Source of the DNA: Sedimentisphaeraceae bacterium JB056
GTDB taxonomy: Bacteria > Planctomycetota > Phycisphaerae > Sedimentisphaerales > Sedimentisphaeraceae
NCBI GenBank assembly: GCA_044440125.1
Contig: JBITAJ010000015.1
Span: forward strand, 64,001-128,000
DNA length: 64,000 bases
Direction: 5' to 3'
Under the pieces are notes generated by a model. The model was not told the DNA's origin, did no database searches, and saw only the letters and a program-made list of their open reading frames with translations. Position 1 is the first letter of the stretch. Every line of letters begins with the position of its first letter. Shown piece by piece: positions 2,788 through 43,881 of the stretch. A program made the translations under genes and the position numbers.

Positions 2788-3819
2788 ATGAAGTCAAATG
2801 TTAAAATGGTTGATATTGCCCGTGAATTGGGCATTTCTTTGTCTACAGTGAGCAGGGCATTATCCGATAGTCCGCTTATAAATGTTGAGACCAAGAAAAA
2901 AGTCAAGGAGCTTTCATGCCAGCTTGGTTTTCGTGCAGATTTGACGGCACGTTCGATCATTACAAAAAAAAGCAATATCATTGGTTGTTTGGTTTATTCA
3001 TTATCTTACAATAACCCTCTTGCATCAATTTTAGAAATGGTTCAAGAGCATATTAAGACTCAAAATCATGAACTCTTTATTGTTAGCGGGTCCAATGATC
3101 TAAAGCTTCAAAGTTATCTTGTTGACAAGATGCTTTCGCGACGTGTTGACGGTATGATACTTGTGCCTCCATTTATTTTGCCCAATGCACGTTATGAGCC
3201 TTTGGATATGGTTATGCAGGCCGGTGTGCCTTGTACTGTTTTTGGTTATTATGCCAACTGTCCAACAAATCAGGTTTGTGTCGATCTCTTTTCAACAGGT
3301 TATTCAATAGGGTCACATTTAACAGGCTTAGGACATAAGAAAATTGCAACGGTTTATCTAATTGATAATGATCCTCGAATTTCTGGAATGAAAAAAGCGT
3401 TATCTGAGCATGATATAGAGTTGGATGATAATTTTTATATTAAACGTAAGCTTCTTAAAAGCAGAGATTTATGGGCGGAATCTGATTGCAGCGACTTGTG
3501 CCGTAAGATACTCAAAAGCGGAGCTACTGCAATTTTTGTTGACAGCGATTCTGTTGCTGTTGATATTGTTACTAACTTAAAAAAAATAGGAATTAAAATT
3601 CCGGAGCAAATTGCGGTTGCAACAGCAGGTGATTCATTGCCTCTTGATATACTTAATCCTGCCCTAACTTCGTATCAGTGGCCATATGAAGTGTTGGCTG
3701 AAAAACTTTCCGATGTTATTATGGATGCGGTACAAACTCCTTCCGCTCCAACTAAGCATATATTCTTACCCGGTACACTTGCTGTTCGGCAGTCCACTGA
3801 TTTGCGTTTATCCAAGTAA
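2788..3819 (+). CDS. LacI-family transcriptional regulator (paralogue A)
   Basis: N-terminal HTH MVDIARELGISLSTVSRAL, hinge ARSI, sugar-binding domain RVDGMI, GHKKIA, IPEQIAV, C-terminal LAVRQST. Confidence 0.95.
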   Translation: MKSNVKMVDIARELGISLSTVSRALSDSPLINVETKKKVKELSCQLGFRADLTARSIITKKSNIIGCLVYSLSYNNPLASILEMVQEHIKTQNHELFIVSGSNDLKLQSYLVDKMLSRRVDGMILVPPFILPNARYEPLDMVMQAGVPCTVFGYYANCPTNQVCVDLFSTGYSIGSHLTGLGHKKIATVYLIDNDPRISGMKKALSEHDIELDDNFYIKRKLLKSRDLWAESDCSDLCRKILKSGATAIFVDSDSVAVDIVTNLKKIGIKIPEQIAVATAGDSLPLDILNPALTSYQWPYEVLAEKLSDVIMDAVQTPSAPTKHIFLPGTLAVRQSTDLRLSK

Positions 3820-3853
3820 TATTAGTTGTATTATTATTGATTTATTAAATTAA

Positions 3854-3868
3854 TTGCAAGCGAGTGCA
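3854..3868. promoter_or_regulatory. Putative LacI-family operator, copy 1 (TTGCAAGCGAGTGCA)
   Basis: Imperfect palindrome centred on CG, resembling TGnAAnCGnTTnCA. Exactly repeated at 3938-3952 and lies just upstream of the -35 box. Confidence 0.75.
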
Positions 3869-3876
3869 GAAAGTGC

Positions 3877-3905: not shown

Positions 3906-3937
3906 ATCATAAAAGGTCTTTTTTTTTTGACCCGGTT

Positions 3938-3989: not shown

Positions 3990-4811
3990 ATGGAACTATC
4001 ATCTCACAGGTTAGCGGTGAAACATTTACGGCAGGCCTTCACTTTAATCGAACTTCTTGTTGTTATATCAATAATTGCGGTTTTAATGTCAATTTTAATG
4101 CCGGCATTGAGGAAAGTAAGAGAACAGGGCAAGGCCATAGTCTGTGCGTCACAGCAAAAAGATATCGGGGTTGCTCTTAATCTTTACGCCCAGGATTGGA
4201 AGGGGCAGCTTCCTACCGGAAACTGGAGTGGAACTGCCGGTTCGAAATATACGAGGCTTCCATATAAATTGAGACCTTATTATTTTGACAATCATAATGT
4301 TCCCAATGATGAAGTTTGGGATTACGAGCTTTTCCGCTGTACCACTCAGCCTATAGAGCTTGAAGCTAAAGGTACTTATGGATATAACACATATTTTTTC
4401 AGGGGATTTGAACCAGATTTTGCCGCAAGTACAGGTAAAGAGAGGCGGCTGTCTGAAATTAAAAATGCTACATCGCTGCCACTATTGGGATGCTTGAACG
4501 GAACTGTCGACCCTGCTTTTGGCGGTGATGGCGGTGGTCAGGAGATGATGTATCAGGGACCACATCCGGCGGCATTGAAATATGGATATGTTGGAGGCGA
4601 GATAAAGCCTGCGAATAGAGATATGATTAATAATTTCGGTCCTGCACCTAATCATGGCAAGAACTGTAATATGCTGATGGCTGATTTCCATGTTGAGGCT
4701 GTGAATGTGTGCGTTGATGGAGAATTCCCATGGACTGACCATATAGGCACAGCATTTCATCCTTCTCGGAATCCAGGAAAGACAGAAAAAGCAGGGTACT
4801 ATAACAAGTAA
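3990..4811 (+). CDS. Prepilin-type N-terminal cleavage/methylation protein (DUF1559-like, H-X9-DG-type C-terminus)
   Basis: [38 protein letters not shown] and C-terminal HGKNCNMLMADFHVE. Start moved to ATG 3990 (GGAG at 3979-3982) because the track's GTG start lies inside the promoter region. Confidence 0.92.
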   Translation: MELSSHRLAVKHLRQAFTLIELLVVISIIAVLMSILMPALRKVREQGKAIVCASQQKDIGVALNLYAQDWKGQLPTGNWSGTAGSKYTRLPYKLRPYYFDNHNVPNDEVWDYELFRCTTQPIELEAKGTYGYNTYFFRGFEPDFAASTGKERRLSEIKNATSLPLLGCLNGTVDPAFGGDGGGQEMMYQGPHPAALKYGYVGGEIKPANRDMINNFGPAPNHGKNCNMLMADFHVEAVNVCVDGEFPWTDHIGTAFHPSRNPGKTEKAGYYNK

Positions 4812-4866: not shown

Positions 4867-6423
4867 ATGAAAAAGATTTGTACGAAAGTTTTTGTGGGCA
4901 TCGTTGTATTGTCATCGGTACTGATGGCGGATTTTTCTTCCCCAGGTATAGTGAATTATGATACTCTTGAGCTGTGGCAGATGGAGAGTATTGTCAGAAA
5001 TTCAGCATCATCACGGCTGGAAGGTTCAACCGTGGATAACACTCTTTGGTTTATGTTGATGGATGGAAGCGGTAATTCCTCGACAATCGGCGAGTTGGTT
5101 AGCGGCCCATCGGCTGACTTTGGTAACGCCGTATCATTTGCGGCAAATGCCCCGCTTGATGATACGCAGGTGCCGAATGTTTATGCAGGCACAAGAACCA
5201 GCGATTCATGGAAAGACTATGAATACGTAAAGGTCGAAATGTGGGTGAAATTCAATGAAACGGGACGACTTGAGTTTATATCCATGACGGATTCATGGCG
5301 TTTATATATGGGAGGTAATAAGTTGACATTCATCTGTTATTTTTCAGATGGTACAAATAGTCTACTTCAAGTTGATATGGGTTCGTATGATTATACTTCA
5401 CAGTGGCATTACATTACTGCCGGCCTTGATGTGGATGGTTCGCAGCAGCTAACTATAACGAGCTTTGACGAGAGCTTTGATCAAAGCACCTCTGCAGTTA
5501 ACGCCGGCAAAACACTTACATCGACCAATGGGTATATATACCTCGCAGCCGACAGGACGTTGAGAAGGTCTTTCAATGGAGCTATTGATAACGTAAGAAT
5601 ATCCCGCCCTGATGCTGAAGAACCTGATTTTCTTTCTCCTTTAGTTGATAACGGTGCTACACAAGCTTTATTTCATCTTGATGAAATAGCTGAAGGTATT
5701 ACACCGGATGATAACTCTGCTCAGATGAGAACGGCAAAGGATATGTCGGTAATCGGCACACCTGAAATAGTAGAAGATGGTGACTATCCCAATGATAACC
5801 CTGATTTTGCCGGTTGCGTGAGCCTTGATGGCATGACTGATTATTTTTCAGGAACTACTTCGTATGGAATGGATACATCCAATTTTAAGGTTGAATCATG
5901 GGTTAAGTTAAATCCTGGCTGGACTGATATTACTAATAAATTATGCTGGATTGCTAACTATGATACCGTCTTCAGGTTATATTTACAGAATGCATCTACT
6001 GGTCCTATCATGGTCTTTGTAGTGTGGGATTCAGCAGGCACTGCGGTAATCTTAAGTACTCCTTGCGGAGCATTGACTGACTGGACTCATCTGGCCGGCG
6101 AGTTTAATAACGGTGTGATTTCTCTCTATATTAACGGGATAAAAACAGCTACAATAAATGCGGCTCAAACTTCCGCTCAGGCTCCTTCTACTAATCCATT
6201 GAGAATTGGCTGTAATAGTCCAAGTGCTCTTTCGAGAGTATTCTGGGGCGAGATGGATGATTTTCGTTTTGGCAAGGCCGTTGCCGAGTGTGGAGATATG
6301 GGCTATATTGATGCTGATATCAACCGCGACTGCATTGTTGATATCGAAGATCTTAGTTTAATGGTTACAGATTGGCTCAAGTGTACGCTTGAAAGCGATC
6401 CAAGCTGTATAGTATTGAACTAA
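4867..6423 (+). CDS. Secreted protein with two LamG/ConA-like jelly-roll domains and a C-terminal half-dockerin-like tag
   Basis: Signal peptide. LamG motifs VEMWVK...QWHYIT...FNGAIDNVRIS and VESWVK...WTHLAG..LYING...FWGEMDDFR. Tail CGDMGYIDADINRDCIVDIEDL..WLKCT. Confidence 0.82.
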   Translation: MKKICTKVFVGIVVLSSVLMADFSSPGIVNYDTLELWQMESIVRNSASSRLEGSTVDNTLWFMLMDGSGNSSTIGELVSGPSADFGNAVSFAANAPLDDTQVPNVYAGTRTSDSWKDYEYVKVEMWVKFNETGRLEFISMTDSWRLYMGGNKLTFICYFSDGTNSLLQVDMGSYDYTSQWHYITAGLDVDGSQQLTITSFDESFDQSTSAVNAGKTLTSTNGYIYLAADRTLRRSFNGAIDNVRISRPDAEEPDFLSPLVDNGATQALFHLDEIAEGITPDDNSAQMRTAKDMSVIGTPEIVEDGDYPNDNPDFAGCVSLDGMTDYFSGTTSYGMDTSNFKVESWVKLNPGWTDITNKLCWIANYDTVFRLYLQNASTGPIMVFVVWDSAGTAVILSTPCGALTDWTHLAGEFNNGVISLYINGIKTATINAAQTSAQAPSTNPLRIGCNSPSALSRVFWGEMDDFRFGKAVAECGDMGYIDADINRDCIVDIEDLSLMVTDWLKCTLESDPSCIVLN

Positions 6424-6453
6424 AAGTAAATAATTCTAAATTTGGAGATAAAA

Positions 6454-7278
6454 ATGAATAAAACGATATATATCATTCTTATTACGCTTACGGCGACATT
6501 AGGATTTGCCAGAGTTAATTATAATATTCCTTATGTAGAGGTATTGCCTACTTATGACGGTGTTTTGCAGGCGGGTGAATGGGACGATGCTTTATCTATA
6601 GCTATAAGTTATGAGGATCTTGTTACTAACGGTAGCGGTGCGGATGTTCTTGGTTCTACTCCGGCGAGCAGTGATATCAGCGGTACTTATTATTTCAAAT
6701 GGGATGAAGATTTCCTATATATGGCATTTGACGTTACAGATGATATACAGGTATGGCGCAACAGTTATCCTGGTTCTTATAACGGACAGGATGATGTTCA
6801 AGTGTGTTTCAATCCTTTTGATGACCCTGCTGCCGTATTTATGACTGATGCCTGGATATTTGATTTTGCCGCAGAAACAAGCGATTTATATGGACCGGAT
6901 GTATATAGGCATACAGGTGATATATTTGTCGATCCTAATATGATAGCTTCGACACTTGAAACGGATGGTTATGTTATTGAGGTTGCTCTTTCATGGAAGG
7001 ATATAAGCTCTGAAATAACGGCAAAAGCCGGCGATTATCATGGCTTTGGTCTGATGATAGTAGATGTTGATTCAAGCACGGCAGAAAGCCTTCTATGTGA
7101 TTTCGGAGAAGGTGTAAATGTAATAAGCAACCCAGCTCAATGGAATATACTGCATTTGGTTGACAGTAAAGGATGCGGCAGTGTTGGCAGGCTTTCAGCG
7201 GATATCAATGCCGATTGCTATGTTGATCTTTCTGATTTTGTGATGATGACTTCCGACTGGATGGAGTCTTCTTTTTAG
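6454..7278 (+). CDS. Secreted CBM9-like (DOMON-like) sugar-binding protein with half-dockerin-like tag
   Basis: PTYDGVLQAGEW, KWDEDFLYMAFDVTDD, DDVQVCF, GYVIEVALSW. Tail CGSVGRLSADINADCYVDLSDF. Start ATG 6454 follows GGAG. Confidence 0.8.
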   Translation: MNKTIYIILITLTATLGFARVNYNIPYVEVLPTYDGVLQAGEWDDALSIAISYEDLVTNGSGADVLGSTPASSDISGTYYFKWDEDFLYMAFDVTDDIQVWRNSYPGSYNGQDDVQVCFNPFDDPAAVFMTDAWIFDFAAETSDLYGPDVYRHTGDIFVDPNMIASTLETDGYVIEVALSWKDISSEITAKAGDYHGFGLMIVDVDSSTAESLLCDFGEGVNVISNPAQWNILHLVDSKGCGSVGRLSADINADCYVDLSDFVMMTSDWMESSF

Positions 7279-7302: not shown

Positions 7303-7339
7303 GTTCTCTGTCTGATGCATTACACGTCAGGCAGAGAAC
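7303..7339 (+). other. Intergenic RNA stem-loop without U-tail
   Basis: GTTCTCTGTCTGATG / CGTCAGGCAGAGAAC: 15-bp stem with two G-U pairs that form only on the + transcript. Confidence 0.65.
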
Positions 7340-7362
7340 ATTACCGTAAGAAAGGGATAATT

Positions 7363-8424
7363 ATGAAGATATCAATAAGTATAGTTTCTCTTGTTTTCTT
7401 ATTTGCTATTTGTCCGATGACGTTTGGTACAGTTTATGAGATTTACCATAATAATATAGCCGATCATTCTGATATCAATACTGTTGGTAGTATTGCCTGG
7501 TATATGAACGAGTATGGCGGATACAATACTTACAAACTTATGTCATCGGCAACATACTATTGTGACAATACTCTTTATGTTTCAGGCAGCTCTACACTCA
7601 GAGGATTGAGTGATAAGTCTTCAGTCATAGCATGCAGTGCAAACTGGACATCGGATGCATCTGATTATCTTATACGTTTAAATTGGGCTTCACAAGTTAA
7701 AGAATTAACGATAGATGGTATGTGGCGGCCACGGTATGTGATATACAGCAGCAGTGATGAGATTGTTGCCGATAACTGTATAATAGCCAAAAGCAAGAAA
7801 GCAGACGGTTGCCATCTTATACTGTTTGTTGGAGCGTCAGATATTCAGGTAACCAACTGTATGCTCAGACGTGCAGCTTGTGACAGTGGTGAGTATAATT
7901 TTGAGCGAAAGGCAGACATCTTGCATGTCAACGGATGCAGTCAGATAGTAATTGGAAATAATGACATGGCCTATGCCGCTGCCGGTGGAATCAGTATGCT
8001 GTATTGCACTGTTGTGAGGTGTACTGATAATCTTATTCATAATACAGGTCAATCTCGTACAAGTGGTTATCTTGGTGATTCAATTACTGGTTATCATAAC
8101 GGATTGGGGACAACCGATCTGAACTGGGAGATATTACGAAATGACATCTGGAACAGTTACAATCACGGTATACATGTTAGCGGCTATGGAATAGAGATTG
8201 AAGATAATGCAATCTGGAGTACTACATTAGGTGCACATATTTATATTGGAGATTGGAAGACCTCGCCTGACTGCAGTGCAGATTGTACCGTAAAGAACAA
8301 CTACTTTGATAATTGTCCCGCTACTAATACTTCAATGTGGATAAAACAGTATGACAGTCAGACTGTGACTTGTTCGGGTAATACGGGTTGTACAACTATT
8401 GTCTGGGGCCCAACCTGCAATTGA
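7363..8424 (+). CDS. Secreted right-handed parallel beta-helix (pectate-lyase-like fold) protein, Cys-rich
   Basis: Signal peptide MKISISIVSLVFLFAIC; repeated beta-helix coils (IVADNCII, IVIGNNDM, ILRNDIW, HGIHVSG, IEDNAIW, VKNNYF). Start moved to ATG 7363. Confidence 0.75.
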   Translation: MKISISIVSLVFLFAICPMTFGTVYEIYHNNIADHSDINTVGSIAWYMNEYGGYNTYKLMSSATYYCDNTLYVSGSSTLRGLSDKSSVIACSANWTSDASDYLIRLNWASQVKELTIDGMWRPRYVIYSSSDEIVADNCIIAKSKKADGCHLILFVGASDIQVTNCMLRRAACDSGEYNFERKADILHVNGCSQIVIGNNDMAYAAAGGISMLYCTVVRCTDNLIHNTGQSRTSGYLGDSITGYHNGLGTTDLNWEILRNDIWNSYNHGIHVSGYGIEIEDNAIWSTTLGAHIYIGDWKTSPDCSADCTVKNNYFDNCPATNTSMWIKQYDSQTVTCSGNTGCTTIVWGPTCN

Positions 8425-8493: not shown

Positions 8494-10584
8494 ATGCGAA
8501 ATATTTTTATAAGTTTATTGATAGTTTTTTCTTTCTGCCCGTTATCTAAGGGTGGCGGTCCATTATTTTTTACTGGAAGTGATAAAGCACGGATATTAAA
8601 CAATATGGCAGTTGATGATCGCATGCGCACAGTATCACAGTCAATCATATCAGATGCGCAAAATATAGATATTTCAACTTTACCGGTGGATGATTTTAAC
8701 TGGTGGAATTCTCCGGATGCTTACGCTTCAGATGAATATATGGCAGTGAGGTTCATGTTGATGGAATATAGTAATGCGGCAAGAAACTCTGCATATGGGT
8801 GGATGCTGAGTGATGATTCCAGTCTGGCTGAGAAGTCAAAGGCTATCTTGTTGTTGTTGAGTGAGTTTCGTTTTGAGTATTATGATGTGAATTCGGGAAT
8901 TGATTACTCTTCTGCAACATTGCCGGCTTTGCAGGCATATGAGCTTGTCTATGATTTTTTCGATCAGTCAGAACACAGCAAGATGGCTTTGTTTTTTGAT
9001 AATGCATTGCTGTCTATCAAAAAATGCAATGATTATTGGATGCAATATCATCCTGCCGGAAGCACAATGTCCAACCATGAAGGGTGGCATAATGTATTCT
9101 TTGCTATGTATGGATTTTTCTATGACGATCAGGAAATGATTTATAGAGCAATTGAGGGAGTGGGGGGCTTCAAGGCAATGCTCAGGGATGGTTTTCAGGA
9201 TGATGGTGTATGGCTTGAAGGTTCGCTGGGATACCATATGGTTCAGTTGACAACCATGACCTATATCGCTGATATGAGTTATAACTGTGGATATATCGAT
9301 AATTTATATGTATACAGTGAACAGGGACGAAGTTTTGTCGACACTTATGCAAATACTATAAGCCTGTTATTTCCAGATGGAATGATACCGTCTATTGGTG
9401 ATAACTATGGTAACCTGCGTTATCTTAAGACTTATCCTGAGATCGAACTGATTCATACCAGAACAGGTGACCAGCGTTTCGCATATCTTATAAACCAGAA
9501 CAGTGTACGAAACAGCAAGGCATTGCTTTGGGGTTTGCCTGTAATACCTCAGGATGTATCGGCTGTGGGAATTGGGTCGAAATTATGGCCGGAACATGGA
9601 TTTGCTGCATTACGTTTGAAAACAGATTCTGATTATTGGAATGGCGAATACGATACTGTATTTACTACATTTTCAAATAATGTTGCACACAGCCATGCCG
9701 ATGGACTTTCGCTAATGTTATACGGAAAAGGTCACCTTTGGCTGCGAGACAGTGAGTGCAAGAATGCCGGAACCAATACGTTTGGGTCGGATGTTAACCA
9801 GAATCTTAATTGGACGACAATATCACACAATACGATTCTTATTGATGAGTCGAATCAGGTGAGAAATCCGGAGCCTTTGGATCTTCTTGAATTCAGCGAT
9901 TTTTCCGGAACTAAAAAGATTCGTATTGCCGATTTGAATGGGCATTTATATAGTGGTGTAAGGCAGTGCAGGACAGTATTTTTGAATGATGATTATGTTC
10001 TTGATGTATTTGAAATAAACTCAGATGGGCAGCATAAAATCTCGTGGATTACGCATATAGACGGTGAGTCGAACTCAATGTCATACAATATTTGGCAGGA
10101 GAATCAGTGGCCTGAAGAAATGCCTTGGTCGTTTCTTAATGGTAAGTCAGTTTCAATGATGCCGAGTGTTTCATTTTGGGAAAGCTTTGTCAATAGTGAT
10201 AAGTATATGAGGATGGATGTAAAAGTTAACCAATCGGCAACATGCGTAAAAACGCAATATCCTGTTACTGAAATAGAACCGGTTGCTTATATACCGATGA
10301 GGCTTTTTGAGGTCAATGGAAGTTATGCTGTCTATGCGGTTGTTTACAGGACAGATAATTCTCCAATTACTTCTGACGCTAATATAACTATAAACGACTC
10401 TGATGTTGAAAATGTTATAATTACGGTCGAGATAAACGGCATTGAATCTTCGTTTGATTTGTCACAGCCGCTTGTTGAATGCGGCAGTGCCGGAGTTTTG
10501 GATACAGATTTGAATAAGGACTGTTATGTTGATATTCAAGATTTTATGATTCTGGCGGCTTCGTGGATGAAATCAACTATTTAA
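8494..10584 (+). CDS. Heparinase II/III-like polysaccharide lyase (PL15/PL17-like architecture) with half-dockerin-like tag
   Basis: SNHEGWHN, DDGVWLEGSLGYH, PSIGDN, HSHADGLS, SHNTILID. Tail CGSAGVLDTDLNKDCYVDIQDF..W. Confidence 0.82.
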   Translation: MRNIFISLLIVFSFCPLSKGGGPLFFTGSDKARILNNMAVDDRMRTVSQSIISDAQNIDISTLPVDDFNWWNSPDAYASDEYMAVRFMLMEYSNAARNSAYGWMLSDDSSLAEKSKAILLLLSEFRFEYYDVNSGIDYSSATLPALQAYELVYDFFDQSEHSKMALFFDNALLSIKKCNDYWMQYHPAGSTMSNHEGWHNVFFAMYGFFYDDQEMIYRAIEGVGGFKAMLRDGFQDDGVWLEGSLGYHMVQLTTMTYIADMSYNCGYIDNLYVYSEQGRSFVDTYANTISLLFPDGMIPSIGDNYGNLRYLKTYPEIELIHTRTGDQRFAYLINQNSVRNSKALLWGLPVIPQDVSAVGIGSKLWPEHGFAALRLKTDSDYWNGEYDTVFTTFSNNVAHSHADGLSLMLYGKGHLWLRDSECKNAGTNTFGSDVNQNLNWTTISHNTILIDESNQVRNPEPLDLLEFSDFSGTKKIRIADLNGHLYSGVRQCRTVFLNDDYVLDVFEINSDGQHKISWITHIDGESNSMSYNIWQENQWPEEMPWSFLNGKSVSMMPSVSFWESFVNSDKYMRMDVKVNQSATCVKTQYPVTEIEPVAYIPMRLFEVNGSYAVYAVVYRTDNSPITSDANITINDSDVENVIITVEINGIESSFDLSQPLVECGSAGVLDTDLNKDCYVDIQDFMILAASWMKSTI

Positions 10585-34654: not shown

Positions 34655-35710
34655 ATGAGTATAGCAAAAGTAGCAGAGATTGCAGGTGTATCAAACACTA
34701 CAGTTTCCTTTGTAATCAACGGCAAGCCGGGAATATCTCAGGATACAGTTGATAAGGTTTGGGATGCAATACGTAAAACAGGTTATGTGCCTCGTGGCAG
34801 TGGCGGAGCTAAGAAGGTCTCTGGAGCTGATTCTCCGGGCTTGAAAACCAGGAATATCGGCATTCTTATGCCTGAAGGTGTTATGAGTACTATTCCTTTT
34901 TATGCGCGTCTTTTCGAGGCTATTCATAAGGAGCTTGATAAACGTAACCTTAATATGTCGCCTATACGCTGCGGCAATGCTTCAGATCTCTCCAGGTCAT
35001 CTTTTAATGATCTTGACGGTCTCTTTCTCTGCAATTATCTAAAGAACATTACTGACTTGATTTCGTTTCCTTTTGTGACAATTCTTGGTCATCCCGATGT
35101 GGAAGATAAACTCAATGCCGATCATATAGAACCAGCCAATGACAAAATAGGCGTGATGGCGGCTTCTTATCTTGTAAACCGCGGTCATAAGAAAGTTCTT
35201 TCGATCAATCCCTCTACGACTTCCCATCCTGCTATGATCACGCGATGCCAGTATTTCACCGATTATGTTGCCAAAAAGGGGGGGGGAGCGGAGTTTATGG
35301 AGCTTTCGTTCACAGAACGCGATAAATATGGCAGGCTGCGTGACGGCATGAGTGTCAATAACGTAAGAGAATTCGTGCTGGATTTCAAGAATCGTAAAGA
35401 CCGTCCCACGGCGATATTTATTCCCTGCGACTCGCATATGGTAATAGTGCAGAAGGCTTTTGCGGCAGAGGGCATTAATCCCGGTGAGGATGTTGAATTC
35501 GTGGGATGTAACAATGAGTCTATACTGCTTGACGGTATGGAGCCTCGTCCTACGACGATAGATATTAATCCGCAAGCTATGGCAAGAGCCGCTTTGGTGG
35601 CTCTGCTTCAAAGAATAAAATACCCAGACAGTTACGATGATATATATAAGGTGGTCAGTATTGAACCGTCTCTTGTACTTCATGGTGCCGGTGTCAGGGG
35701 AAAATGGTGA
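34655..35710 (+). CDS. LacI-family transcriptional regulator
   Basis: SIAKVAEIAGVSNTTVSFVING, GHKKV, RPTAIF, PTTIDIN. Confidence 0.93.
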   Translation: MSIAKVAEIAGVSNTTVSFVINGKPGISQDTVDKVWDAIRKTGYVPRGSGGAKKVSGADSPGLKTRNIGILMPEGVMSTIPFYARLFEAIHKELDKRNLNMSPIRCGNASDLSRSSFNDLDGLFLCNYLKNITDLISFPFVTILGHPDVEDKLNADHIEPANDKIGVMAASYLVNRGHKKVLSINPSTTSHPAMITRCQYFTDYVAKKGGGAEFMELSFTERDKYGRLRDGMSVNNVREFVLDFKNRKDRPTAIFIPCDSHMVIVQKAFAAEGINPGEDVEFVGCNNESILLDGMEPRPTTIDINPQAMARAALVALLQRIKYPDSYDDIYKVVSIEPSLVLHGAGVRGKW

Positions 35711-35745: not shown

Positions 35746-38700
35746 ATGAAAAAGATGTTATTAATGATCGTCGCGGTTATCGTATTGGGTACGTCAGCCC
35801 ACGCCGCATTCAATGAGGATTTTGACACATTCTCTCTCGGTGCATTAACTGCACAGGAAAGCTGGGAGGCGCATGCTACCGTAACGGTTGAAACTACTGC
35901 GACAAGTGGTGAATACACCGGCGGCAGGGCGCTTAAGACTAATTCAACCGGTGATGAATGGCCTCGCCATGATTCAACAGGTGTTGCCCTTGGTCTTACG
36001 CTTGATCAGGACGGTATTGAATACGGTTTCGATGTAAGGGAAGATAATACTTCTGCCGTGAGTGCATATCTCTTTATGCGTCAGGGACGTACTGCTAACT
36101 ACGGTGCGGCAGTTGGTCTTGGTGGAGGCTATTTTGCCATTCGTCCGAATGCTACCAGTGGCGATACTATTACCGGTAACTGGGTAGGAGCCGATGGTGG
36201 AGCGTATTGGGAAAAGGGTGACTGGTTAAGAATAAAAATAAGGCTAACCGGTACAAATTTCAGTACAGCAACTGTTTACTGCTATAATCTGACAAAGAGT
36301 ATCGATGTTCCTACCGGGATTACAGGTTATGATACAGGTATTAATTATCTTTCAAAGGCTGCTTCATGGACAGGTTTAAATTTAAGGCTGACTTTAAGTA
36401 CAGGAACTTATGTTGACAATCTTTATATTGAAGATTACACTGCACCTGTAGCACCTACACCTTCAATGTATATTGAAGATTTTGAGTCAGAAACTCTTGG
36501 TTCAATAAATCAAACAGGTTGGCGTGATAATGCTCCTGCAGTAACAATTGTATCAACCTCAGACAGTGGTGAGTATGTCGGTGGAGCTCAGGCTATGAAG
36601 TCTGGTTCTACGGGTGATGAGTGGCCTCAGTATGCATTAGACAGATTTGTTGATCCTGGTTTGCAGGTTGGCACTTTTGACGGTATTGAAATGGGTTTTG
36701 ATTTCAGAGAAGACAATACCTCGCTTGCAAGCTGCAGAATGCACTTCAGAGTTGATGTAACTAGTTCTTACAGTCCTGCTTTCGGTCTTAATGTTGGCAA
36801 TTTCGCCATCAGAGAAAATGGTGACGGCGGTACTACACATACCGGTAATGCTATTGGAAGCGCCGGTGCGAGCCTGTGGGAAAAAGGTGACTGGGTAAGA
36901 TTGACTCTTGTATTGACAGGTACTTCTTACAGTCGTGCAACTCTTTACGCTTACAACCTTGATAAAGGTGTTGAGATTCCTACAGGTCTTGAGAGTGTTT
37001 CTCTTGCTGTTAGTCCTCAAATCAATGCTGCAGATTGGTCTCGTCTTGTATTCAGGATGGGTAACTCATCAGGTACTTACGTAGATAATGCTTATGTTAC
37101 TGATTATGTGAATACAAATGTACTTGCAGAAAATCCAACTCCTGCAGATGGCGAGTATCCTGTAGCTATTTCAGGCGGCGTAACTCTCAGTTGGGACGGC
37201 GCACCTTCTGCTGATTCTCACAAGGTTTATTTCGGAACTGCCTCAGATGAACTTACTCTGGAAACAGATACAACCTCTGAGTCTTATCTGCTTCCTTATA
37301 CCCTTGAAAAAGGTGTTACATACTACTGGCGTATAGATGAAGTTATTGCCGGTGTTGACAATGAAGGTATGGTTTGGTCGTTTACTACAGAGCTTGGCGA
37401 TTTGAATTATCCTCGCAGAATGGCTTATGAAGGCTTTGATTATGATCAGTATGTTGCGTTAAAAAACACTTCCAATGGTGGTTTTGGCTGGGAAACAAGC
37501 TGGGAACGTTCTGCAGGCGGCTGGTGCTACCTCAATGTAGGTCCTGGAAGTCTTACTCCTGCTATGGATTACCTGCTTGGTACAAATGGCAACCGTATTC
37601 AGCATCCTGCTTCTACTGCTAATGACGGTATGAGAGAGCTCAGCTATCCAATTGATGCGAGAGCTGATCAGGATTACTATATCAGCTATCTTGCTATGGG
37701 TGAATATGATGGGTATAATCAGGTTAATTTCGCTGTTTATGAATCTAAGAGCGGTGCTTATTTATTCCAGAACCACATGTTCTATACCGGTTATTCCGGC
37801 ATAACATCTCCTCAATTTGCGTTGAGAGACCCAAGCGGCGCATGGAATAACAAACTTTACGGTTCATGGGCATCAGATGAAGTTTATGTTGTAGTTGTTA
37901 AAATCAGTGCTACAGCAACCGGTGATGATACTGTTTCTGTAAGCGTATTTGATGCAACTAATCCGCTTCCTGCTACAGAACCGACTGTCTGGGATGAATC
38001 GTTTACTACACAGAGTGACAAGGTTTATCCATGGATATCTATATCAGGTCGAAGTGATGCTTATGACCTTTGGAATATGGACGAAATACATGTAGGAACA
38101 GGCTGGGGAGCTGTAACAGGTTGGGCTGAAGCCTGTGGTGATTTCGGTACTCTAATGGCTTATGATCTTAATGAGGACTGTTATGTAGATCTTGGCGATT
38201 ATGCTTTAATGGCGTCAGATTGGTTTAAGTCAACAGATCCTTCTGTTGAAGGCAGCGAGTGGGTAATTGAGGATAATGATCCTAACTTTACTACACTGTT
38301 TACTGATCTTGATGCTTCTCAGTTAAATGTTTATGAGACAGATACTGTAACAGTTGACGGCAATCTCAGTGAATGGTCAAGCTCTCGCTGGTATAACACT
38401 CTGTTTACTTCAGGTTATCAGACAACAAGTGTAAGTGATGTAACAGATGCAGAAGTTGCTTTGAAATGGGATCCTGCTAATCCTGATACCGTTTATATGG
38501 CACTTAAAGTAACAGATACTAACCAGAGTTTTGCTGCTACTCCTGATGCCTGGAATGCAGGCGATAATATCGAAATACGTTTCAGCGTAAACGATACATC
38601 AAGCAGTGAAACATGGCTTGATAATGAGACTTTCGATACTGCACAGTATTATCAGATATTCCCACAGACCGGTGGTTTCTACGCGAACCTTGGTCCTATC

Positions 38701-39120
38701 GGAACCGCTATGGATGCTGAAGTTTATACTGATATAGAAGCAGCAGTTTCTGTTGACGGTGATATTATCACCTACGAAATAGCTTTGCCTGTTTACAGCA
38801 GCTATGATATTAACAGCCAATCAGGAACTTCTTACAATCTTACTGATAGTGATGTTGTGGCTTTCAATCTCCAGATAAATTCAGTTAATGGTGGAGAATT
38901 TGGCGGATTGTTTGCTGATCAGGGACATGCTCCTGACGGTTGGCCGGCATTTACAGTTACTCTTAACAGCTCATTGCCTCTTGGAGCTTTCGGCTTCTTT
39001 GATGCAGACCTTGATGAGAACGGTATGGTGGGTCTTAGCGATCTTGATACCATAATCTTGAAGTGGTTAAGCTGTACAGACCCTGAAGGTGTTGGCTGCG
39101 ATCAGCCATGGATGCCTTAA
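35746..39120 (+). CDS. Secreted, apparently non-catalytic multidomain protein: 2x unrecognised domain + Fn3-like + CBM9-like domain between two half-dockerin motifs
   Basis: Signal peptide; tandem domains each with WEKGDW.R and TYVDN; LSWDG..HKVYFGT..YYWRIDE..VWSFTT; VDGNLSEW...YMALKVTD; DLNEDCYVDLGDY and DLDENGMVGLSDL..WLSCTDP. Confidence 0.82.
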   Translation: MKKMLLMIVAVIVLGTSAHAAFNEDFDTFSLGALTAQESWEAHATVTVETTATSGEYTGGRALKTNSTGDEWPRHDSTGVALGLTLDQDGIEYGFDVREDNTSAVSAYLFMRQGRTANYGAAVGLGGGYFAIRPNATSGDTITGNWVGADGGAYWEKGDWLRIKIRLTGTNFSTATVYCYNLTKSIDVPTGITGYDTGINYLSKAASWTGLNLRLTLSTGTYVDNLYIEDYTAPVAPTPSMYIEDFESETLGSINQTGWRDNAPAVTIVSTSDSGEYVGGAQAMKSGSTGDEWPQYALDRFVDPGLQVGTFDGIEMGFDFREDNTSLASCRMHFRVDVTSSYSPAFGLNVGNFAIRENGDGGTTHTGNAIGSAGASLWEKGDWVRLTLVLTGTSYSRATLYAYNLDKGVEIPTGLESVSLAVSPQINAADWSRLVFRMGNSSGTYVDNAYVTDYVNTNVLAENPTPADGEYPVAISGGVTLSWDGAPSADSHKVYFGTASDELTLETDTTSESYLLPYTLEKGVTYYWRIDEVIAGVDNEGMVWSFTTELGDLNYPRRMAYEGFDYDQYVALKNTSNGGFGWETSWERSAGGWCYLNVGPGSLTPAMDYLLGTNGNRIQHPASTANDGMRELSYPIDARADQDYYISYLAMGEYDGYNQVNFAVYESKSGAYLFQNHMFYTGYSGITSPQFALRDPSGAWNNKLYGSWASDEVYVVVVKISATATGDDTVSVSVFDATNPLPATEPTVWDESFTTQSDKVYPWISISGRSDAYDLWNMDEIHVGTGWGAVTGWAEACGDFGTLMAYDLNEDCYVDLGDYALMASDWFKSTDPSVEGSEWVIEDNDPNFTTLFTDLDASQLNVYETDTVTVDGNLSEWSSSRWYNTLFTSGYQTTSVSDVTDAEVALKWDPANPDTVYMALKVTDTNQSFAATPDAWNAGDNIEIRFSVNDTSSSETWLDNETFDTAQYYQIFPQTGGFYANLGPIGTAMDAEVYTDIEAAVSVDGDIITYEIALPVYSSYDINSQSGTSYNLTDSDVVAFNLQINSVNGGEFGGLFADQGHAPDGWPAFTVTLNSSLPLGAFGFFDADLDENGMVGLSDLDTIILKWLSCTDPEGVGCDQPWMP

Positions 39121-39254: not shown

Positions 39255-40076
39255 ATGAAAAAGATGACTCCAAAACAAGGCTTTACTCTTATTGAACTTC
39301 TTGTTGTAATTTCTATAATTGCTATCTTGATGGCAGTGATGATGCCTGCACTTGGCAAAGCAAGAGAGGTTGCCAAGAATGTTATATGCCGTTCCAATAT
39401 AAAAGGAATTGGTACAGCTTCGTTGCTCTGGAGTGAAGATAATGAGAACTGGGTGCTTCCTGCTCTTTGGGACAGAGGCAACAGCGAAGGTGACAGTTTA
39501 CTCTTACCCTATCTTGGTGATGCCGAAGCCGGCAGTAAAGTCATGCTTTGTCCTGCAGTACCGGCAAAATATGCAGGGAAGACATATGAAGAGCTTGGTC
39601 TTGAGAAAGATGTTGCAGGTCTTGCAAACGGAGGTAACTATTACAACAGCTACGGTTATAATATGAAGCTTTGTGCACCGACAAGCCAATGTCCGGGAAG
39701 TTATGACAAATCTAATGATGACGGCAGTACCTGGGGTAAAGACGGCGTGTGGTATAAGAAGCATGGTAACTGTAAATTGTTTAGCATACGTAAACCGTCA
39801 ACAACAATTATGTTTGCTGAAAGTATTGTATATCTCAGCTATCCTGAATATTACACCAAAGCCATGGCAAACCCTGCTTTCAGCGATCCGGCAGCGAGAG
39901 GTCGTCGTCATAATCCCAAAAAGAGACGCGTCGGCAGCGATGATGTTGAGTACTGCGGCAACATGAACATTGCCTGGATGGATGGCAGTGTATCTGAAGA
40001 ACCTGATGATATGGATATTCGCTCTGACGATGGAAGAACCTACAATATCAACGGCAACTACTGGTATGGAAAATAA
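39255..40076 (+). CDS. Prepilin-type N-terminal cleavage/methylation protein (DUF1559-like)
   Basis: [47 protein letters not shown]-terminal RRH...[11 protein letters not shown]. Confidence 0.93.
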
Positions 40077-40230: not shown

Positions 40231-43200
40231 ATGAAATACATAGCAATTCTCTTAGTTCTTGTTTTGTCAGGATTTTCTGCGGGTTCGACAGTATATTTTG
40301 ATCTTGATGATAGCTACATTGTTTCAGGTAATTGGAATACTGTTAGTGATTGGACCGAGGGCGTACACGTTATTGATGCTATCGACAGTGATGGTAATCA
40401 GACCGCTGTTTCCTTGAATTGTGCCGATGGTTTTGCTATGTATAATTCAAGCGGTGAATCGGCTGTAACAGCTTATCCGACAGAAGCGGGAATGGATTCT
40501 TTTTATCTTTCATATTCCAACAGTTATGCGAAAATTCAGATAGGCGGTCTGACGGAAGGACAGAGTTATGATTTTACGTTTTTCGGTTCACGTGCATCAA
40601 GCGGCCCCAGAGCTCTCGATATATCTATCGGCGGCACTCAAGTTACTCTTGATGCGGCATACAATATAAGTGATACCGTTACAATAAACGGAGTAGTTGC
40701 GCCGTCAAGCGGAATAGTGCAGATTAGTGTTTCGCTCTCTTCGGGCAGTAGTTACGGCTATCTTGGTGTTATCGAGATAAACGGCAATTTCGCTGCCCCT
40801 CAAATTCAGCCCGAAGGCATTTTTGTCGCTCCGTGGGGTCTTGATTCCAACCCGGGTACGTATAACTGGCCTAAAGCTACGATGTCAGGTGCTTTTGATG
40901 CGGTTGCTGATTATAAGCAGACTAACGGCTTACCGGTCGGCGGGTTGGACGTGAATTTCAGAGGCGGTCATTACTATTTTACTTCTACTGCTTTTGCTGA
41001 TAGTTCTATAGATGGCGAGGCAGGAAAACCTGTAACATTTAAGCCTTACAATGATGAAGAGGTTATTTTTGATGGAAGCGTTGAGATTAACAGCAGTGAC
41101 TTTTCACTTGTAACAGACCAGAGTGTTTTAGGGCGGCTTGGAGATAATGCTGCGGGTAATGTATATGGTTGTTATATTTCTGAGAGCAGTTTGAGAGATC
41201 AGCTTTCAAATGTAAATTCAGTTGTTGATCTTGATGGTAAAATGGCTCAGGTGAGCCGTTATCCAAATGTAGGAAATTCGCATATTGACAGTGTTATAGA
41301 TGCTGGTGAGATTTACGCTGTTGGTCGTACACCGGGTGATCCGCCGACTTACAGTATGTCTGACCCTATCGGAGCGGAATTTACTATACAAGAAACTGAT
41401 GCCGCAGAGTGGGAACTTGAATACCAATCTGTACAAAAGGCAGTTCTTACCGGTTATCTTGCTAATGACTGGTATAAGGAAAGTCATACAATCGCCTCGA
41501 TTAATTCCGGTGCAGTCAAATTATTGGAATACAGTCGATATGAGATAAACAGCAGTGGTGCAAGAAGATTTTATGTACTCAATCTTATGTGTGAATTAGA
41601 TTCAGAGGGTGAGTGGTACTTTGATGAGTCTGCGAATATTCTTTATGTATGGCCTTATGAACCGATAACCTCACAGACCGATATTGGTGTGTGGAATGGT
41701 CCTGAATTTTTGAAAATATATTGCAGTTATGTTAATTTTGAAGATTTTATAATTCAGGGAACAACACAGGGAGCAAGCGGAAGCGGTATGATTACTTTCT
41801 ATGCCGGTGATAATGTTAAATTTACCGGTTGTACCTTCCGTAATACCTCAAGACCTGCCGTCTCTTTCATGTCAGATTGCACAACTACAAACAGTGGTGT
41901 TGTCGGATGCGATTTTTATGATGCTTCTTCACACCTGAATATCTACGGTGGAGTAGCTGATGAGAATGAGATAACTGCCGCCGGTAATTACGCTATAAAC
42001 TGCCATTTTACACAGGTTCAGGCACGTGATTATCTTGGCCGTGTGTATTTCCGTGGTGTTGGCAATATTTTCCGCAACAACCTGATTCACAATCTGCCTG
42101 ATGATCCTGTAAAAGCAGGCGGATATGATAATGTTTTTGAACTTAACGAAATATTCAACTGCGGCTTTGAGAGTGGTGATGGCGGAGCTATATATTGGTC
42201 AGCCGGTATGGAAAGTTATGGGAATATATTCCGCAACAATTTTCTTCATCATCTCATGTGTACTCCCGGATTGCATCCAAAGGGTGGAATGTATCCTGAT
42301 CAGCTTGATGCCGGTGATACTTTTCAGCAGAATGTTTTTTATAAGGCGGCACATAGAGCTATACTTCTCAATGGCGGTGCAGGGCATCGTGTAGAGGCGA
42401 ATGTTTTCCTTCAAGGGTGTATTGGGTTGTATCAGACTGAAAGCTATGCGCAGGGTGCTTATGACGACATACCTCTTTACGATAACGGTACACTTACCCG
42501 CGGTGATGTTGGTGATTATATCTGGCGTACAGAACAGGTTGTCGGCGTAGAAGGCTGGAACAGTGAACCATGGCTTTCTCATTTTCCATTGTTTGCAACT
42601 GTTATGAATCAGGAAATGATGCGTTTCTGGCCAATTGAAAACTATTTCAATGATAATATGTTCTATGGAAATACCGATAGTAATCTTCAATATCGATTTA
42701 CTTCAAGCAGCGTTACTACTGATTTTGCATCACTTCCATCTTATGTGAGCGCAAGCGATAACAGGAATATAACACTTGATGTTTTTGTTGACCCATCTAA
42801 GCTCAACTTTAAATTTGTTGATAATGCACCATTGTGGGCACCTGCAATACCTTTTGATAACATCGGTCTTTATGTTGGCGATGGAAGGACAAGTGTGCCT
42901 AATAAAAACACTTATCGCAGCCTGATTAAAGAAAATTTTGCCGCTCGTCCAAGTTATGACGAATCTGCTTCGTATAATCCAGCTACGATAAACTCTCTGG
43001 TTTACTATAATACAGGTGAGCTTCTTATGAATCTACCTGATGCAGATTTTAATAGTGATGGCATTGTGAATATGCTTGATTATTCAGTGCTTGGCAGTGA
43101 ATGGCAACGAAGCGATGAAGAGTTTCAATGGAATGTATTTGATTTTGATACATTCACACTTGGCGAGCTTACTGCACAGCAAGGCTGGGAGGCTAAGAGC

Positions 43201-43881
43201 ACAATAGATGTTGTAGCAACCTCTGATGATGGTCTTTACACAGCGGGAAGGGCATTGAAAGATAGCAACTATGGTGATGATTGGCCTCGCGCAGATCAAA
43301 ACGGCATTGATTTAGGTATTGACACCTCTCAATGCGATATGATAAAGATAAGCTTTGATGTTCGTGAGGGTACGAATCCAAGTGAGGGAACAACACTTTA
43401 CAGTGCACGTTTATTCCTGCGTAATGGAGCTACATCAAACTATTCTCCTTCATTTGGTATTTCTGCGGGCAAAGTTGCTCTAAGACCAGAAGGTGAGCAG
43501 GGTGATACAATAGAGGGAAATAATCTTGCCGGAAGCGCATATTATGGTGCGGATAAATACTGGGAGAAAGGCGACTGGCTTAGAATTACCCTGATTCTTG
43601 ACGGTGAAACTTACAGGAATGCAACACTTGAAATTAAGAACCTATCAAAAGGCGGAACAGATATACCTACCGGAATAGCAAATATTGATGTCGGCAGAGA
43701 TATTGGCAGTGATGCTTCACTTTGGAACAGACCAACTTTCAGACTCAGCGGTTCTTATAATACTTATGTTGATAATATAATAACTGCGGGAGAAATAAAA
43801 TTTGTCCCTGTGGCTGATGTAACACTTGACGGTAGTGTTGATATTGATGATTTAGCTGAGTTAGCAGCTCAATGGTTATAA
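40231..43881 (+). CDS. Secreted GH141-like beta-helix protein with N-terminal beta-sandwich and a C-terminal unrecognised domain flanked by half-dockerin motifs
   Basis: FVAPWGLDSNPG, FRGGHYY, SRYPN, ELDSEGEWYFD, DGGAIY, YKAAHRAILLNGGAGH; DFNSDGIVNMLDY and DVTLDGSVDIDDL..W. Confidence 0.85.
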   Translation: MKYIAILLVLVLSGFSAGSTVYFDLDDSYIVSGNWNTVSDWTEGVHVIDAIDSDGNQTAVSLNCADGFAMYNSSGESAVTAYPTEAGMDSFYLSYSNSYAKIQIGGLTEGQSYDFTFFGSRASSGPRALDISIGGTQVTLDAAYNISDTVTINGVVAPSSGIVQISVSLSSGSSYGYLGVIEINGNFAAPQIQPEGIFVAPWGLDSNPGTYNWPKATMSGAFDAVADYKQTNGLPVGGLDVNFRGGHYYFTSTAFADSSIDGEAGKPVTFKPYNDEEVIFDGSVEINSSDFSLVTDQSVLGRLGDNAAGNVYGCYISESSLRDQLSNVNSVVDLDGKMAQVSRYPNVGNSHIDSVIDAGEIYAVGRTPGDPPTYSMSDPIGAEFTIQETDAAEWELEYQSVQKAVLTGYLANDWYKESHTIASINSGAVKLLEYSRYEINSSGARRFYVLNLMCELDSEGEWYFDESANILYVWPYEPITSQTDIGVWNGPEFLKIYCSYVNFEDFIIQGTTQGASGSGMITFYAGDNVKFTGCTFRNTSRPAVSFMSDCTTTNSGVVGCDFYDASSHLNIYGGVADENEITAAGNYAINCHFTQVQARDYLGRVYFRGVGNIFRNNLIHNLPDDPVKAGGYDNVFELNEIFNCGFESGDGGAIYWSAGMESYGNIFRNNFLHHLMCTPGLHPKGGMYPDQLDAGDTFQQNVFYKAAHRAILLNGGAGHRVEANVFLQGCIGLYQTESYAQGAYDDIPLYDNGTLTRGDVGDYIWRTEQVVGVEGWNSEPWLSHFPLFATVMNQEMMRFWPIENYFNDNMFYGNTDSNLQYRFTSSSVTTDFASLPSYVSASDNRNITLDVFVDPSKLNFKFVDNAPLWAPAIPFDNIGLYVGDGRTSVPNKNTYRSLIKENFAARPSYDESASYNPATINSLVYYNTGELLMNLPDADFNSDGIVNMLDYSVLGSEWQRSDEEFQWNVFDFDTFTLGELTAQQGWEAKSTIDVVATSDDGLYTAGRALKDSNYGDDWPRADQNGIDLGIDTSQCDMIKISFDVREGTNPSEGTTLYSARLFLRNGATSNYSPSFGISAGKVALRPEGEQGDTIEGNNLAGSAYYGADKYWEKGDWLRITLILDGETYRNATLEIKNLSKGGTDIPTGIANIDVGRDIGSDASLWNRPTFRLSGSYNTYVDNIITAGEIKFVPVADVTLDGSVDIDDLAELAAQWL

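Follow-up and report, generated by a model that had tools for sequence, protein, structure and literature searches.

What is a pilin-like gene doing beside the regulator of a sugar locus? The question arises in a 64,000-nt stretch of the genome of Sedimentisphaeraceae bacterium JB056 (contig JBITAJ010000015.1, here C15:64001-128000; hereafter "the window" means this whole stretch), in which two sugar loci on the + strand (2788-13719, and 34655 to at least 63280) each begin with a LacI-family regulator gene and each carry a pilin-like gene next to genes for exported, lectin-like proteins ending in a dockerin-like repeat. It belongs to a wider question, namely by what means polysaccharides enter the cells of planctomycetes and their relatives in the absence of SusC/D and with few TonB-dependent transporters; the group studied here holds one of the richest repertoires of carbohydrate-active enzymes (CAZymes; PMC11131199). 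A first-pass annotation of the window had read the arrangement as a SusC/D-independent apparatus in which a substrate-specific minor pilin and partner binding proteins serve pilus- or fibre-based glycan capture. Its observation was confirmed, since the features are where it had placed them and they recur in the genome far beyond chance, and its interpretation was supported in part.

Gene set and labels

The genome is Sedimentisphaerales-like, 4.54 Mb long and 99.77% complete, with about 42% G+C. We used a set of 3517 genes obtained by a simple longest open reading frame (ORF) procedure (92% coding). We considered as pilin-like any gene found by a motif search (86 genes; the motif itself demands Glu+5), PF07963 having 92 places genome-wide. 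We considered as regulators the LacI-sensor-type genes found with a hidden Markov model seeded with the three LacI genes of the window (67 genes, 32 of them with the PF00356 LacI helix-turn-helix, HTH), and as tagged any protein with a dockerin-like repeat at most 40 residues from its C-terminus (143 proteins; the first D and the W of the repeat were fixed by the search pattern). A tail variant of the form W-x-x-C-[TS]...C, hereafter the Cys tail, was present in 31 of the 143. Precisely, a neighbour was any gene within 3 genes, and neighbourhood counts were compared with 300 genome-wide shuffles of the labels. Proteins of the window are named by the first position of their gene, and its two pilin-like genes are called pilin 1 and pilin 2.

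Recurrence of the regulator, pilin-like and tagged genes

A regulator was found near 42 of the 86 pilin-like genes (shuffle mean 9.4) and a tagged gene near 55 of them (shuffle mean 18.7), while 23 of the 31 genes with a Cys tail had a pilin-like gene near by (shuffle mean 4.3); in all three cases none of the 300 shuffles reached the observed value. The enrichment of the LacI, pilin and tail trio, which the first-pass annotation had proposed to check, is therefore present, with all counts above every shuffle. It holds for the regulators with PF00356 (21/32 with a pilin within 3 genes, 4.6 expected), and those without the LacI HTH (35/67, about 380-418 aa) have a pilin at this distance in 21 of 35 cases.

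Because all three classes live in sugar loci, we also shuffled the gene order within operons. In this case, 36 of 59 pilins touched a tagged gene against 20.4 +/- 3.4, a value reached in 0 of 2000 shuffles. The ordered pattern of a regulator, zero to three tagged genes and a pilin was seen 24 times; the shuffles gave 4.8 +/- 2.0 and never more than 13. In the operon strings these three classes stand at the 5' end with the enzymes behind them. The trio of regulator, pilin and tagged gene is a real recurrent unit.

Its members also duplicate together. For 20 of the 29 pilins that have a paralogue scoring at least 60 bits, a homologue of the tagged neighbour is present at the paralogous locus, against a locus-pair background of 4.9%. 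Relatives of the tagged neighbours of pilin 1 lie beside each of its six nearest paralogues (55-309 bits between the neighbours), and at least five paralogues of the 4867 protein adjoin paralogous pilins. Such figures could be expected if the pilin, regulator and tagged genes merely travelled together by segmental duplication of sugar loci. In fact, the cassettes are clearly duplicated as units, and the pilin-containing operons, with 107/143 tagged genes and 42/67 regulators, hold as many as 822 of the 3517 genes (23%). We nevertheless give co-location as the whole explanation hardly any credence, as the gene order at the head of the operon persists between dissimilar loci and reappears in another genus, the same pairing is found under riboswitches, and an orthologous pair is kept on an independent contig (see below).

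The pilin-like proteins

Both window pilins had been described as DUF1559-like prepilins. The prepilin part of this description stands, since both carry the N_methyl motif (PF07963) and thereby a class III signal peptide; the DUF1559 part (PF07596) falls below the cut-off, with 19.0 bits (E 0.0016) for pilin 1 and 15.1 bits (E 0.024) for pilin 2 against a gathering threshold of 23.3. The motif of pilin 1 lies at aa 58 of the ORF 3864-4811, and the ATG at 3990 gives a leader of 15 aa ending in ...KHLRQ, with Ala at -1, followed by AFTLIELL. In class III leaders this position is held by Gly and rarely by Ala; of the 86 pilins, 45 have Gly there and 41 have Ala.

The best NCBIfam matches of both window pilins were ComGC and GspG, over the N-terminus only (for TIGR01710, 32-33 bits against a cut-off of 88.85, again over the N-terminus only). 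PF08334 (T2SSG) was absent from both, whereas the canonical GspG of the genome's T2SS (type II secretion system) cluster has it at 9e-29. No H-X9-DG model was among their NCBIfam matches at E <= 0.01; the strict H-X9-DG motif is present in 25 of the 86 pilins, and by eye pilin 1 reads H-X9-DF and pilin 2 Y-X9-DG. An AlphaFold2 (AF2) model of pilin 2 (mean predicted local distance difference test, pLDDT, 88) has an N-terminal helix of 51 residues (12-62) and a sheet at the C-terminus, with about 150 residues between them. Foldseek of this model against the PDB gave nothing at E <= 1e-3, the top matches being pilins; the nearest structures were PilA4 (Z 4.7 over 123 residues) and EpsG (Z 3.8), both low Z values. 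The term minor pilin was thus not borne out: the window pilins resemble the GspG/ComGC type, which is major pseudopilin-like, with a large insertion, and not the known minor pilins.

These proteins share with GspG/PulG, ComGC and PilA the class III leader with Phe+1 and Glu+5 and, as far as the model of pilin 2 predicts, a sheet preceded by a hydrophobic N-terminal helix some 50 residues long. They differ from GspG/PulG in that about 80 of them are orphans, each in a nutrient operon and away from the machine clusters, and in their length (250-330 aa), with the insertion of about 150 residues and no detected T2SSG domain. With the DUF1559 (PF07596, "SBP_bac_10") and H-X9-DG families of Planctomycetota, Verrucomicrobiota and Lentisphaerota they share the same build and the expansion into paralogues, although the window pilins lie under the Pfam cut-off and the strict motif is limited to the 25 copies given above. 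Their named relatives come from Sedimentisphaera, Anaerohalosphaera and other Phycisphaerae, and NCBI labels one relative "DUF1559 family PulG-like putative transporter". Many matches of the pilin search carry PF07596, more distant ones among them, or the JGI name "H-X9-DG protein". In Planctopirus, 68 paralogues of the DUF1559/H-X9-DG type have been reported, two of them essential (PMC10632474).

For pilin 2 we found 33 orthologues at 50-74% identity, followed by a drop to <= 40% (paralogues). This sharp drop indicates that each pilin paralogue is a conserved lineage of its own. In GTDB relatives, the best match of pilin 2 had 38-39% identity, in 2 of 40 genomes at E <= 1e-30.

A distinct orthologue group for each paralogue would fit ligand specificity, and thus a bindosome-like arrangement in which the pilins, anchored by their helix in the periplasm or envelope, are themselves receptors passing oligosaccharides or B12 on to transporters of the inner membrane, with a separate role for the tagged lectins. 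A precedent exists in archaeal sugar-binding proteins that have signal peptides of the pilin type. The Ala at -1 in about half of the pilins, the SSF symporter within the second operon of the window and the "putative transporter" in the NCBI name point the same way. However, the model shows a pilin-type helix and sheet and no match to a solute-binding fold, and all 86 pilins have the Glu+5 associated with filament assembly, although the search motif demands it. The tight adjacency of pilins and tagged genes would also be left unexplained, and we regard this arrangement as unlikely.

The dockerin-like tag and the tagged proteins

The first-pass annotation had held that only the two pilin-adjacent proteins carry a WLxCT tail. 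Both tails are present as it had quoted them, WLKCTLESDPSC after a dockerin-like repeat at the end of the 4867 protein and WLSCTDPEGVGC after the terminal repeat of the 35746 protein, which has a further, internal repeat (aa 806). For the Cys tail the claim holds in the window; for the underlying repeat it does not, as this ends five proteins (4867, 6442, the lyase 8494, 35746 and the beta-helix protein 40231). The tag consists of a single calcium loop and a helix, and the Cys-containing tail is a variant of this shorter C-terminal motif. Over the 143 tails the consensus is D-[LI]-N-x-D-[CG]-x-V-[DN]-x-x-D-[LF]-x-x-x-A-x-x-W-L, with N, D, V and D at the loop positions in 100, 126, 129 and 140 tails, which agrees with the type I calcium-loop consensus D-x-[ND]-x-[DN]-G-x-[VI]-[DN]-x-x-D and its helix; Cys replaces the usual loop Gly in 93/143.

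PF00404 did not reach its threshold in the window, where the terminal repeats are single (best 17.1 bits, for the 40231 protein, against 22.9). Genome-wide, Dockerin_1 was found at the thresholds used in 5 of the 143 tails, all with two repeats, and one tail matches a solved dockerin (PDB 2y3n_B, E 5.7e-4). The two-repeat tails and this match indicate that the tag grades into true type I dockerins.

A Pfam scan of the 143 tagged proteins (72 of them at E <= 1e-4 and the remaining 71 at E <= 1e-5) found Laminin_G_3 in 39, GLUG in 13, CBM9 in 9 and FG-GAP in 8; 17 had an enzyme domain and 56 gave no match. The enzyme domains belong to lyases, GH16, GH26, an esterase, peptidases, PAP2, NAGPA and others. 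The tag is also found on some enzymes, as well as on proteins outside sugar loci; the description of its carriers as apparently non-catalytic binders nevertheless agrees with the scan, most being lectin-like or unannotated. NCBIfam gave no family for the tagged proteins. A crude signal-peptide rule is passed by 141 of the 143 and by 34% of all genes.

The calcium loop D-x-N-x-D-[CG]-x-V-D-x-x-D with its helix, and the C-terminal position on exported glycan-active proteins, are as in the type I dockerins of cellulosomes. Unlike these, the tag usually has one repeat, often has the Cys for Gly, carries an extra C-x7-C loop in 31 proteins and has no matching cohesin. The tags could still be ordinary dockerins on a divergent cohesin scaffoldin, the pilins being unrelated neighbours, as in a cellulosome-like scaffold of the "planctosome" type. 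The full two-repeat dockerins in 5 of 143 tails and the 2y3n_B match would suit such a scaffold, and cohesin/dockerin modules have been reported in other Phycisphaerae, with a planctosome proposed for another family of the class (PMC6461901). We consider it very improbable here. PF00963 finds no cohesin in this 99.77% complete genome while control genomes match, although divergent cohesins could escape; most tails are single-repeat, and the adjacency to pilins exceeds the within-operon chance.

Riboswitch operons and filament machinery

The genome has two cobalamin riboswitches, each placed directly upstream of an operon with tagged proteins and pilins (Table 1). The claim of glycan capture therefore has to be widened: as a glycan-specific function it does not hold, and with both B12 riboswitches at the head of such operons the module serves nutrient acquisition in general. 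One of the two operons encodes a DUF4465 protein, and DUF4465 is a reported B12-binding domain (bioRxiv 10.1101/2025.08.21.671476). Neither riboswitch operon contains a BtuB-type transporter, and phmmer searches of their tagged proteins against the PDB matched dockerin ends only, with no BtuG/H. A cobalamin riboswitch over exported binders, a DUF4465 protein among them, recalls the BtuG/BtuH/BtuJ-BtuB relay of Bacteroides, with the differences that a BtuB-type transporter is missing from the operon, that PEP-CTERM is on the DUF4465 protein and the dockerin-like tag on its neighbour, and that a pilin-like gene follows. A phosphate version of the module was not seen, PF12849 finding only one ordinary PstS of 277 aa, not beside a pilin.

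Genome-wide, SusD_RagB had 0 matches and TonB_dep_Rec one, at C29:87142, so the lack of Sus-type genes observed in the window extends to the whole genome. The loci resemble the Sus-like polysaccharide utilization loci (PULs) of Bacteroidota in having one substrate per regulated operon, binders, few tethered and many untethered enzymes and an inner-membrane transporter. They differ in the lack of a SusC/D pair, in the LacI-type regulator and in the dockerin-like tag that replaces the lipid anchor, and a pilin-like gene occupies the place of the transporter pair.

For filaments, the genome encodes six secretins, ten T2SSE ATPases (four of them PilT-like, 364-384 aa), one Peptidase_A24 prepilin peptidase and T2SSF proteins, and it has a canonical GspD-E-F-G cluster as well as three classical pilin or machine clusters. 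One filament-machine cluster (C15:17421-33743) lies about 30 kb upstream of the window. Its ATPases are two long ones of the T2SSE type and one that is PilT-like, and it further encodes a T2SSF protein, a protein of 1036 aa without a Pfam match and five large pilin-like proteins of 282-354 aa.

Known T2SS employ one pseudopilin set for all cargo. The chief rival to capture and import departs from this, in that the pilin of each locus would be a cargo-specific pseudopilin for T2SS export or surface placement of the locus proteins and the tag a recognition or anchoring signal, import following another route. The pilins are GspG-like, the genome has a complete T2SS cluster and the tagged proteins are exported. 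T2SS export has been proposed by the authors of a study of a verrucomicrobial alginate cluster (PMC13274419), and up-regulation of the T2SS on fucoidan has been reported (PMC11685898). In other phyla, the proteins closest in structure to one of the tagged proteins under riboswitch control have PEP-CTERM or type IX secretion system (T9SS) tails, a lead that suggests a sorting or anchoring tag. On the other hand, such an adaptor would not account for import in a genome with no SusD and one TonB-receptor match, and most of the exported enzymes of the loci are untagged. Control by a riboswitch points to the acquisition of the sensed nutrient, and a pilin stands where other bacteria encode BtuB; we therefore prefer capture and import to pure enzyme secretion, and think a secretion or display adaptor possible, though rather improbable.

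Conservation across genomes

In a complete genome of the same family and another genus, a regulator and a tagged gene were each found within 3 genes in 12 of the 20 best-scoring pilin loci. One independent contig (L163) carries a pilin 2 orthologue of 74% identity followed by an orthologue of the 40231 protein (50% identity, 9e-96). A synteny search of metagenome contigs gave two loci only, one of them a match of 29% identity. Both repeats and a WLSCTDPExxGC tail are conserved in two orthologues of the 35746 protein (P0122 and P0123). The contigs of these orthologues have the same lengths (33603 and 140672) as those of two pilin 2 orthologues, so that the genes may lie on shared contigs, which does not imply adjacency. 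A model of the tag matched all 41 sampled genomes of the order, this one included, with 10-147 matches each.

Gene content of the two loci

Pfam was run on 33 of the 41 window ORFs of at least 150 aa, the remaining eight being nested within longer ORFs of the opposite strand. The scan bears out the LacI gene at the head of both loci, and it found the LacI HTH with a periplasmic-binding-protein-like sensor in all three regulators of the window. No TonB receptor, SusD or cohesin was among the 33 ORFs, as had been stated. The features are collected in Table 1.

Table 1. Genes of the two window loci and the two riboswitch operons, with the evidence for each
Feature	Coordinates	Strand	Evidence and remarks
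LacI-family regulator heading locus 1	2788..3819	+	Pfam LacI HTH and Peripla_BP_3; PF00356 match
Pilin-like gene 1	3990..4811	+	N_methyl 3e-7; ORF open from 3864, likely start ATG 3990
Exported LamG x2 protein	4867..6423	+	Laminin_G_3, two stretches; signal peptide visible
Exported CBM9-like protein	6442..7278	+	CBM9_1 5e-12; short dockerin-like terminal repeat DINADCYVDLSDFVMMTSDW
Beta-helix protein, untagged	7315..8424	+	Beta_helix 2.4e-7
Heparinase II/III / alginate-lyase-like enzyme	8494..10584	+	Pfam; dockerin-like tail DLNKDCYVDIQDFMILAASW
Second heparinase II/III / alginate-lyase-like enzyme, untagged	10605..12656	+	Pfam
2-hydroxyacid dehydrogenase (cytoplasmic step), last gene of locus 1	12673..13719	+	2-Hacid_dh_C 9e-43
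LacI-family regulator heading locus 2	34655..35710	+	Pfam LacI 1.6e-12; PF00356 match
Exported 1124-aa multidomain protein	35746..39120	+	Two concanavalin A (ConA)-like jelly-roll domains, CBM9-like domain
Pilin-like gene 2	39255..40076	+	N_methyl 1.4e-8; MKKMTPKQ then GFTLIELL, Gly at -1
Exported 1216-aa beta-helix/GH141-like protein	40231..43881	+	Pfam; ConA-like domain, an internal repeat, terminal dockerin-like repeat
Remainder of operon 2, untagged	43895..63280	+	Pfam, NCBIfam; same strand, short gaps; signal peptides on most
B12 operon 1	C16:56581-59783		Riboswitch, tagged 357-aa protein, DUF4465 protein with PEP-CTERM (5e-46), pilin
B12 operon 2	C1:23155-29737		Riboswitch, two tagged, pilin, small gene, tagged, pilin, tagged

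The pilin neighbours had been called secreted and lectin-like. Pfam agrees for the LamG and CBM9 proteins of locus 1, and for the CBM9-like part of the 35746 protein, in which Pfam finds no CBM9, the resemblance comes from BLASTP only (25% identity over 216 columns with the CBM9 protein 6442, at E 3e-7 as a single comparison). The gene of the 35746 protein follows its LacI gene after 35 nt. Its repeated N-terminal domain, which recurs in the 40231 protein and in a 1724-aa protein (25542-30716), was modelled by AF2 as a beta-sandwich of moderate confidence (pLDDT 69); 70 Foldseek matches had E <= 1e-3, and among those listed most were ConA-like jelly rolls. On these matches the term lectin-like is reasonable, though lyases and glucanases share the fold. 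The 1724-aa protein, exported and encoded on the - strand, has no Pfam match; it starts with the ConA-like domain (46% identity) and ends in long Gly-rich repeats.

CAZymes follow the binder genes in both loci, as the first-pass annotation had it: the lyases 8494 and 10605 in locus 1, and beta-helix/GH141-like proteins, a sulfatase and GH29 downstream of 40231 in locus 2. The remainder of operon 2 encodes the sulfatase, two URO-D-like proteins, GH141-like beta-helix proteins (one with a GDSL domain), the SSF symporter and a beta-helix protein with a GH29 fucosidase domain. The two URO-D-like proteins within this sulfatase/fucosidase operon (45559-46578 and 58829-59896) are cytoplasmic; they may be methyltransferase-type enzymes for methylated sugars, which would be of interest beside the operons for B12 capture. 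A 987-aa protein (46644-49607), also part of this remainder, has a beta-propeller-lectin-like region and a CehA/McbA-type metallohydrolase domain, both NCBIfam matches being below cut-off.

A palindrome TTTGCA..TGCAAA lies at 3937-3954, before pilin 1, and a perfect one, GGGTGCAAATTGCACCC, at 39139-39155, between the 35746 gene and pilin 2. Palindromes with at most one mismatch are common in the AT-rich spacers, and none could be assigned as a LacI operator. The third LacI gene of the window (13891-14928, HTH and sensor) heads only one gene, for a 581-aa PEP-CTERM protein (region 13891-16848), and a second PEP-CTERM protein of 241 aa is encoded near by at 19811-20536. With PEP-CTERM proteins beside tagged ones, the genome uses two C-terminal tags, PEP-CTERM and the dockerin-like repeat. 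Divergent from locus 1, on the - strand at 3-2512, are a gene for an ECF-type sigma factor and then one for a VWA/YfbK-type protein.

Proposed mechanism

The reading that we tentatively prefer is that locus-specific GspG-like pilins are assembled by a type IV filament machine into a fibre or pseudopilus that holds or retrieves the dockerin-tagged binders and moves their ligand across the outer membrane. The two window loci would belong to a type of nutrient-acquisition operon that is spread through the genome and the order. Each such operon is headed by a nutrient sensor (a LacI-type repressor in the window loci, a cobalamin riboswitch elsewhere) and encodes one locus-specific GspG-like pilin, one to three Sec-exported ligand binders, sometimes with one enzyme, bearing the calcium-loop/helix tag, and untagged exported enzymes with an inner-membrane transporter. 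The data show this architecture with its statistics and conservation, the domains and regulators, the machines and the lack of Sus-type genes, and from them we infer a sequence of pilin processing, assembly, contact with the tag and import. On induction, the pilin would be cut by the single prepilin peptidase. A machine of the T2SS or type IV pilus (T4P) type, with secretin, long ATPase and PilT-like ATPase, would then polymerise it into a short fibre or pseudopilus, to which, or to whose portal, the tagged binders would dock through the tag, capturing glycan or corrinoid. Retraction or hand-over would finally carry the ligand through the outer membrane, a role played elsewhere by SusC/D or TonB-dependent transporters. 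A complex prediction of pilin 2 (residues 30-273) with calcium and a 58-residue tail, run without controls, scored 0.00 and speaks neither for nor against binding.

Several observations weigh against this mechanism. As many as 36 of the 143 tagged genes lie outside pilin operons, those of GLUG-repeat proteins and peptidases among them. Overall, the similarity of pilins and that of their neighbours were not significantly correlated in a Mantel-type comparison (rho 0.076, shuffle sd 0.054). The Ala at -1 in 41 of the 86 pilins, pilin 1 included, may impair cleavage, and the genes were called by a simple ORF caller. Across the 41 genomes of the order, tag counts correlated with pilin-candidate counts at rho 0.42, while the correlations with genome size were 0.42 and 0.71; co-variation is thus not separable from genome size. 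Outside the order, the tag model matched only 10 of 100 other Planctomycetota genomes, with at least 10 matches in only 2. In a broad sample of the Planctomycetes-Verrucomicrobia-Chlamydiae (PVC) group, 80 pilin loci had a LacI-like gene nearby in 10 cases and a C-terminal tag in only 2, figures that are rough because the ORF caller is weak on high-GC DNA. The sample was gathered by the N-terminal pattern only and contained no close orthologues. As PVC pilins abound without the tag, the tag cannot be the general partner of the pilin family. The pilin family is old and PVC-wide; the tag, mostly restricted to a single order, was added at the level of the order.

Related systems show how such a fibre might work. 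In DNA-uptake pseudopili, retraction brings the ligand inward. A filament can also gain binding through an added module, as does PilB of Streptococcus sanguinis with its vWA module (PMC8179133). The present case would differ from both in that the binding modules are separate tagged proteins and not pilin fusions, and in that the ligands would be glycans and corrinoids. Within the phylum, pili-like fibres of the crateriform structures of Planctopirus and Gemmata, two Planctomycetia, bind dextran, whole polymer is taken up into the periplasm, and the authors speculate that import is associated with the crateriform structures and fibres (PMC5394234). That is fibre-based glycan binding in the same phylum but in another class, and PMC5394234 names no genes and nowhere uses the word pilin. 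The dockerin-like tag is rare outside Sedimentisphaerales. In a verrucomicrobium, a pulG-like pseudopilin with 67 homologues is part of an alginate-induced cluster, and a pseudopilin is among the three alginate-overexpressed genes outside both induced clusters (PMC13274419).

A bolder form of the preferred mechanism, which we regard as doubtful, is that outer-membrane nutrient import in Sedimentisphaerales is carried out by a type IV filament machine that replaces TonB-dependent transporters, with induced GspG-like subunits, calcium-dependent tagged binders and PilT-like retraction through the secretin into the periplasm. If true, it would be a nutrient-uptake counterpart of the DNA-uptake pili, and it would give the glycan-binding fibres of planctomycetes a molecular identity.

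Significance

Targeted literature searches, which did not cover subscription journals, found no published description of a module of regulator, pilin and dockerin-like tag. As every pilin of this genome is linked with a sensor and with tagged binders, the large DUF1559-type families of pilin-like proteins gain testable candidates for their function. The two riboswitch operons offer a clean system with a single ligand, B12, for genetics and biochemistry. If the proposed mechanism holds, the loci would represent a new PUL logic, and a role would be found for the single-repeat dockerin-like tag, which is carried by 4% of the proteome.

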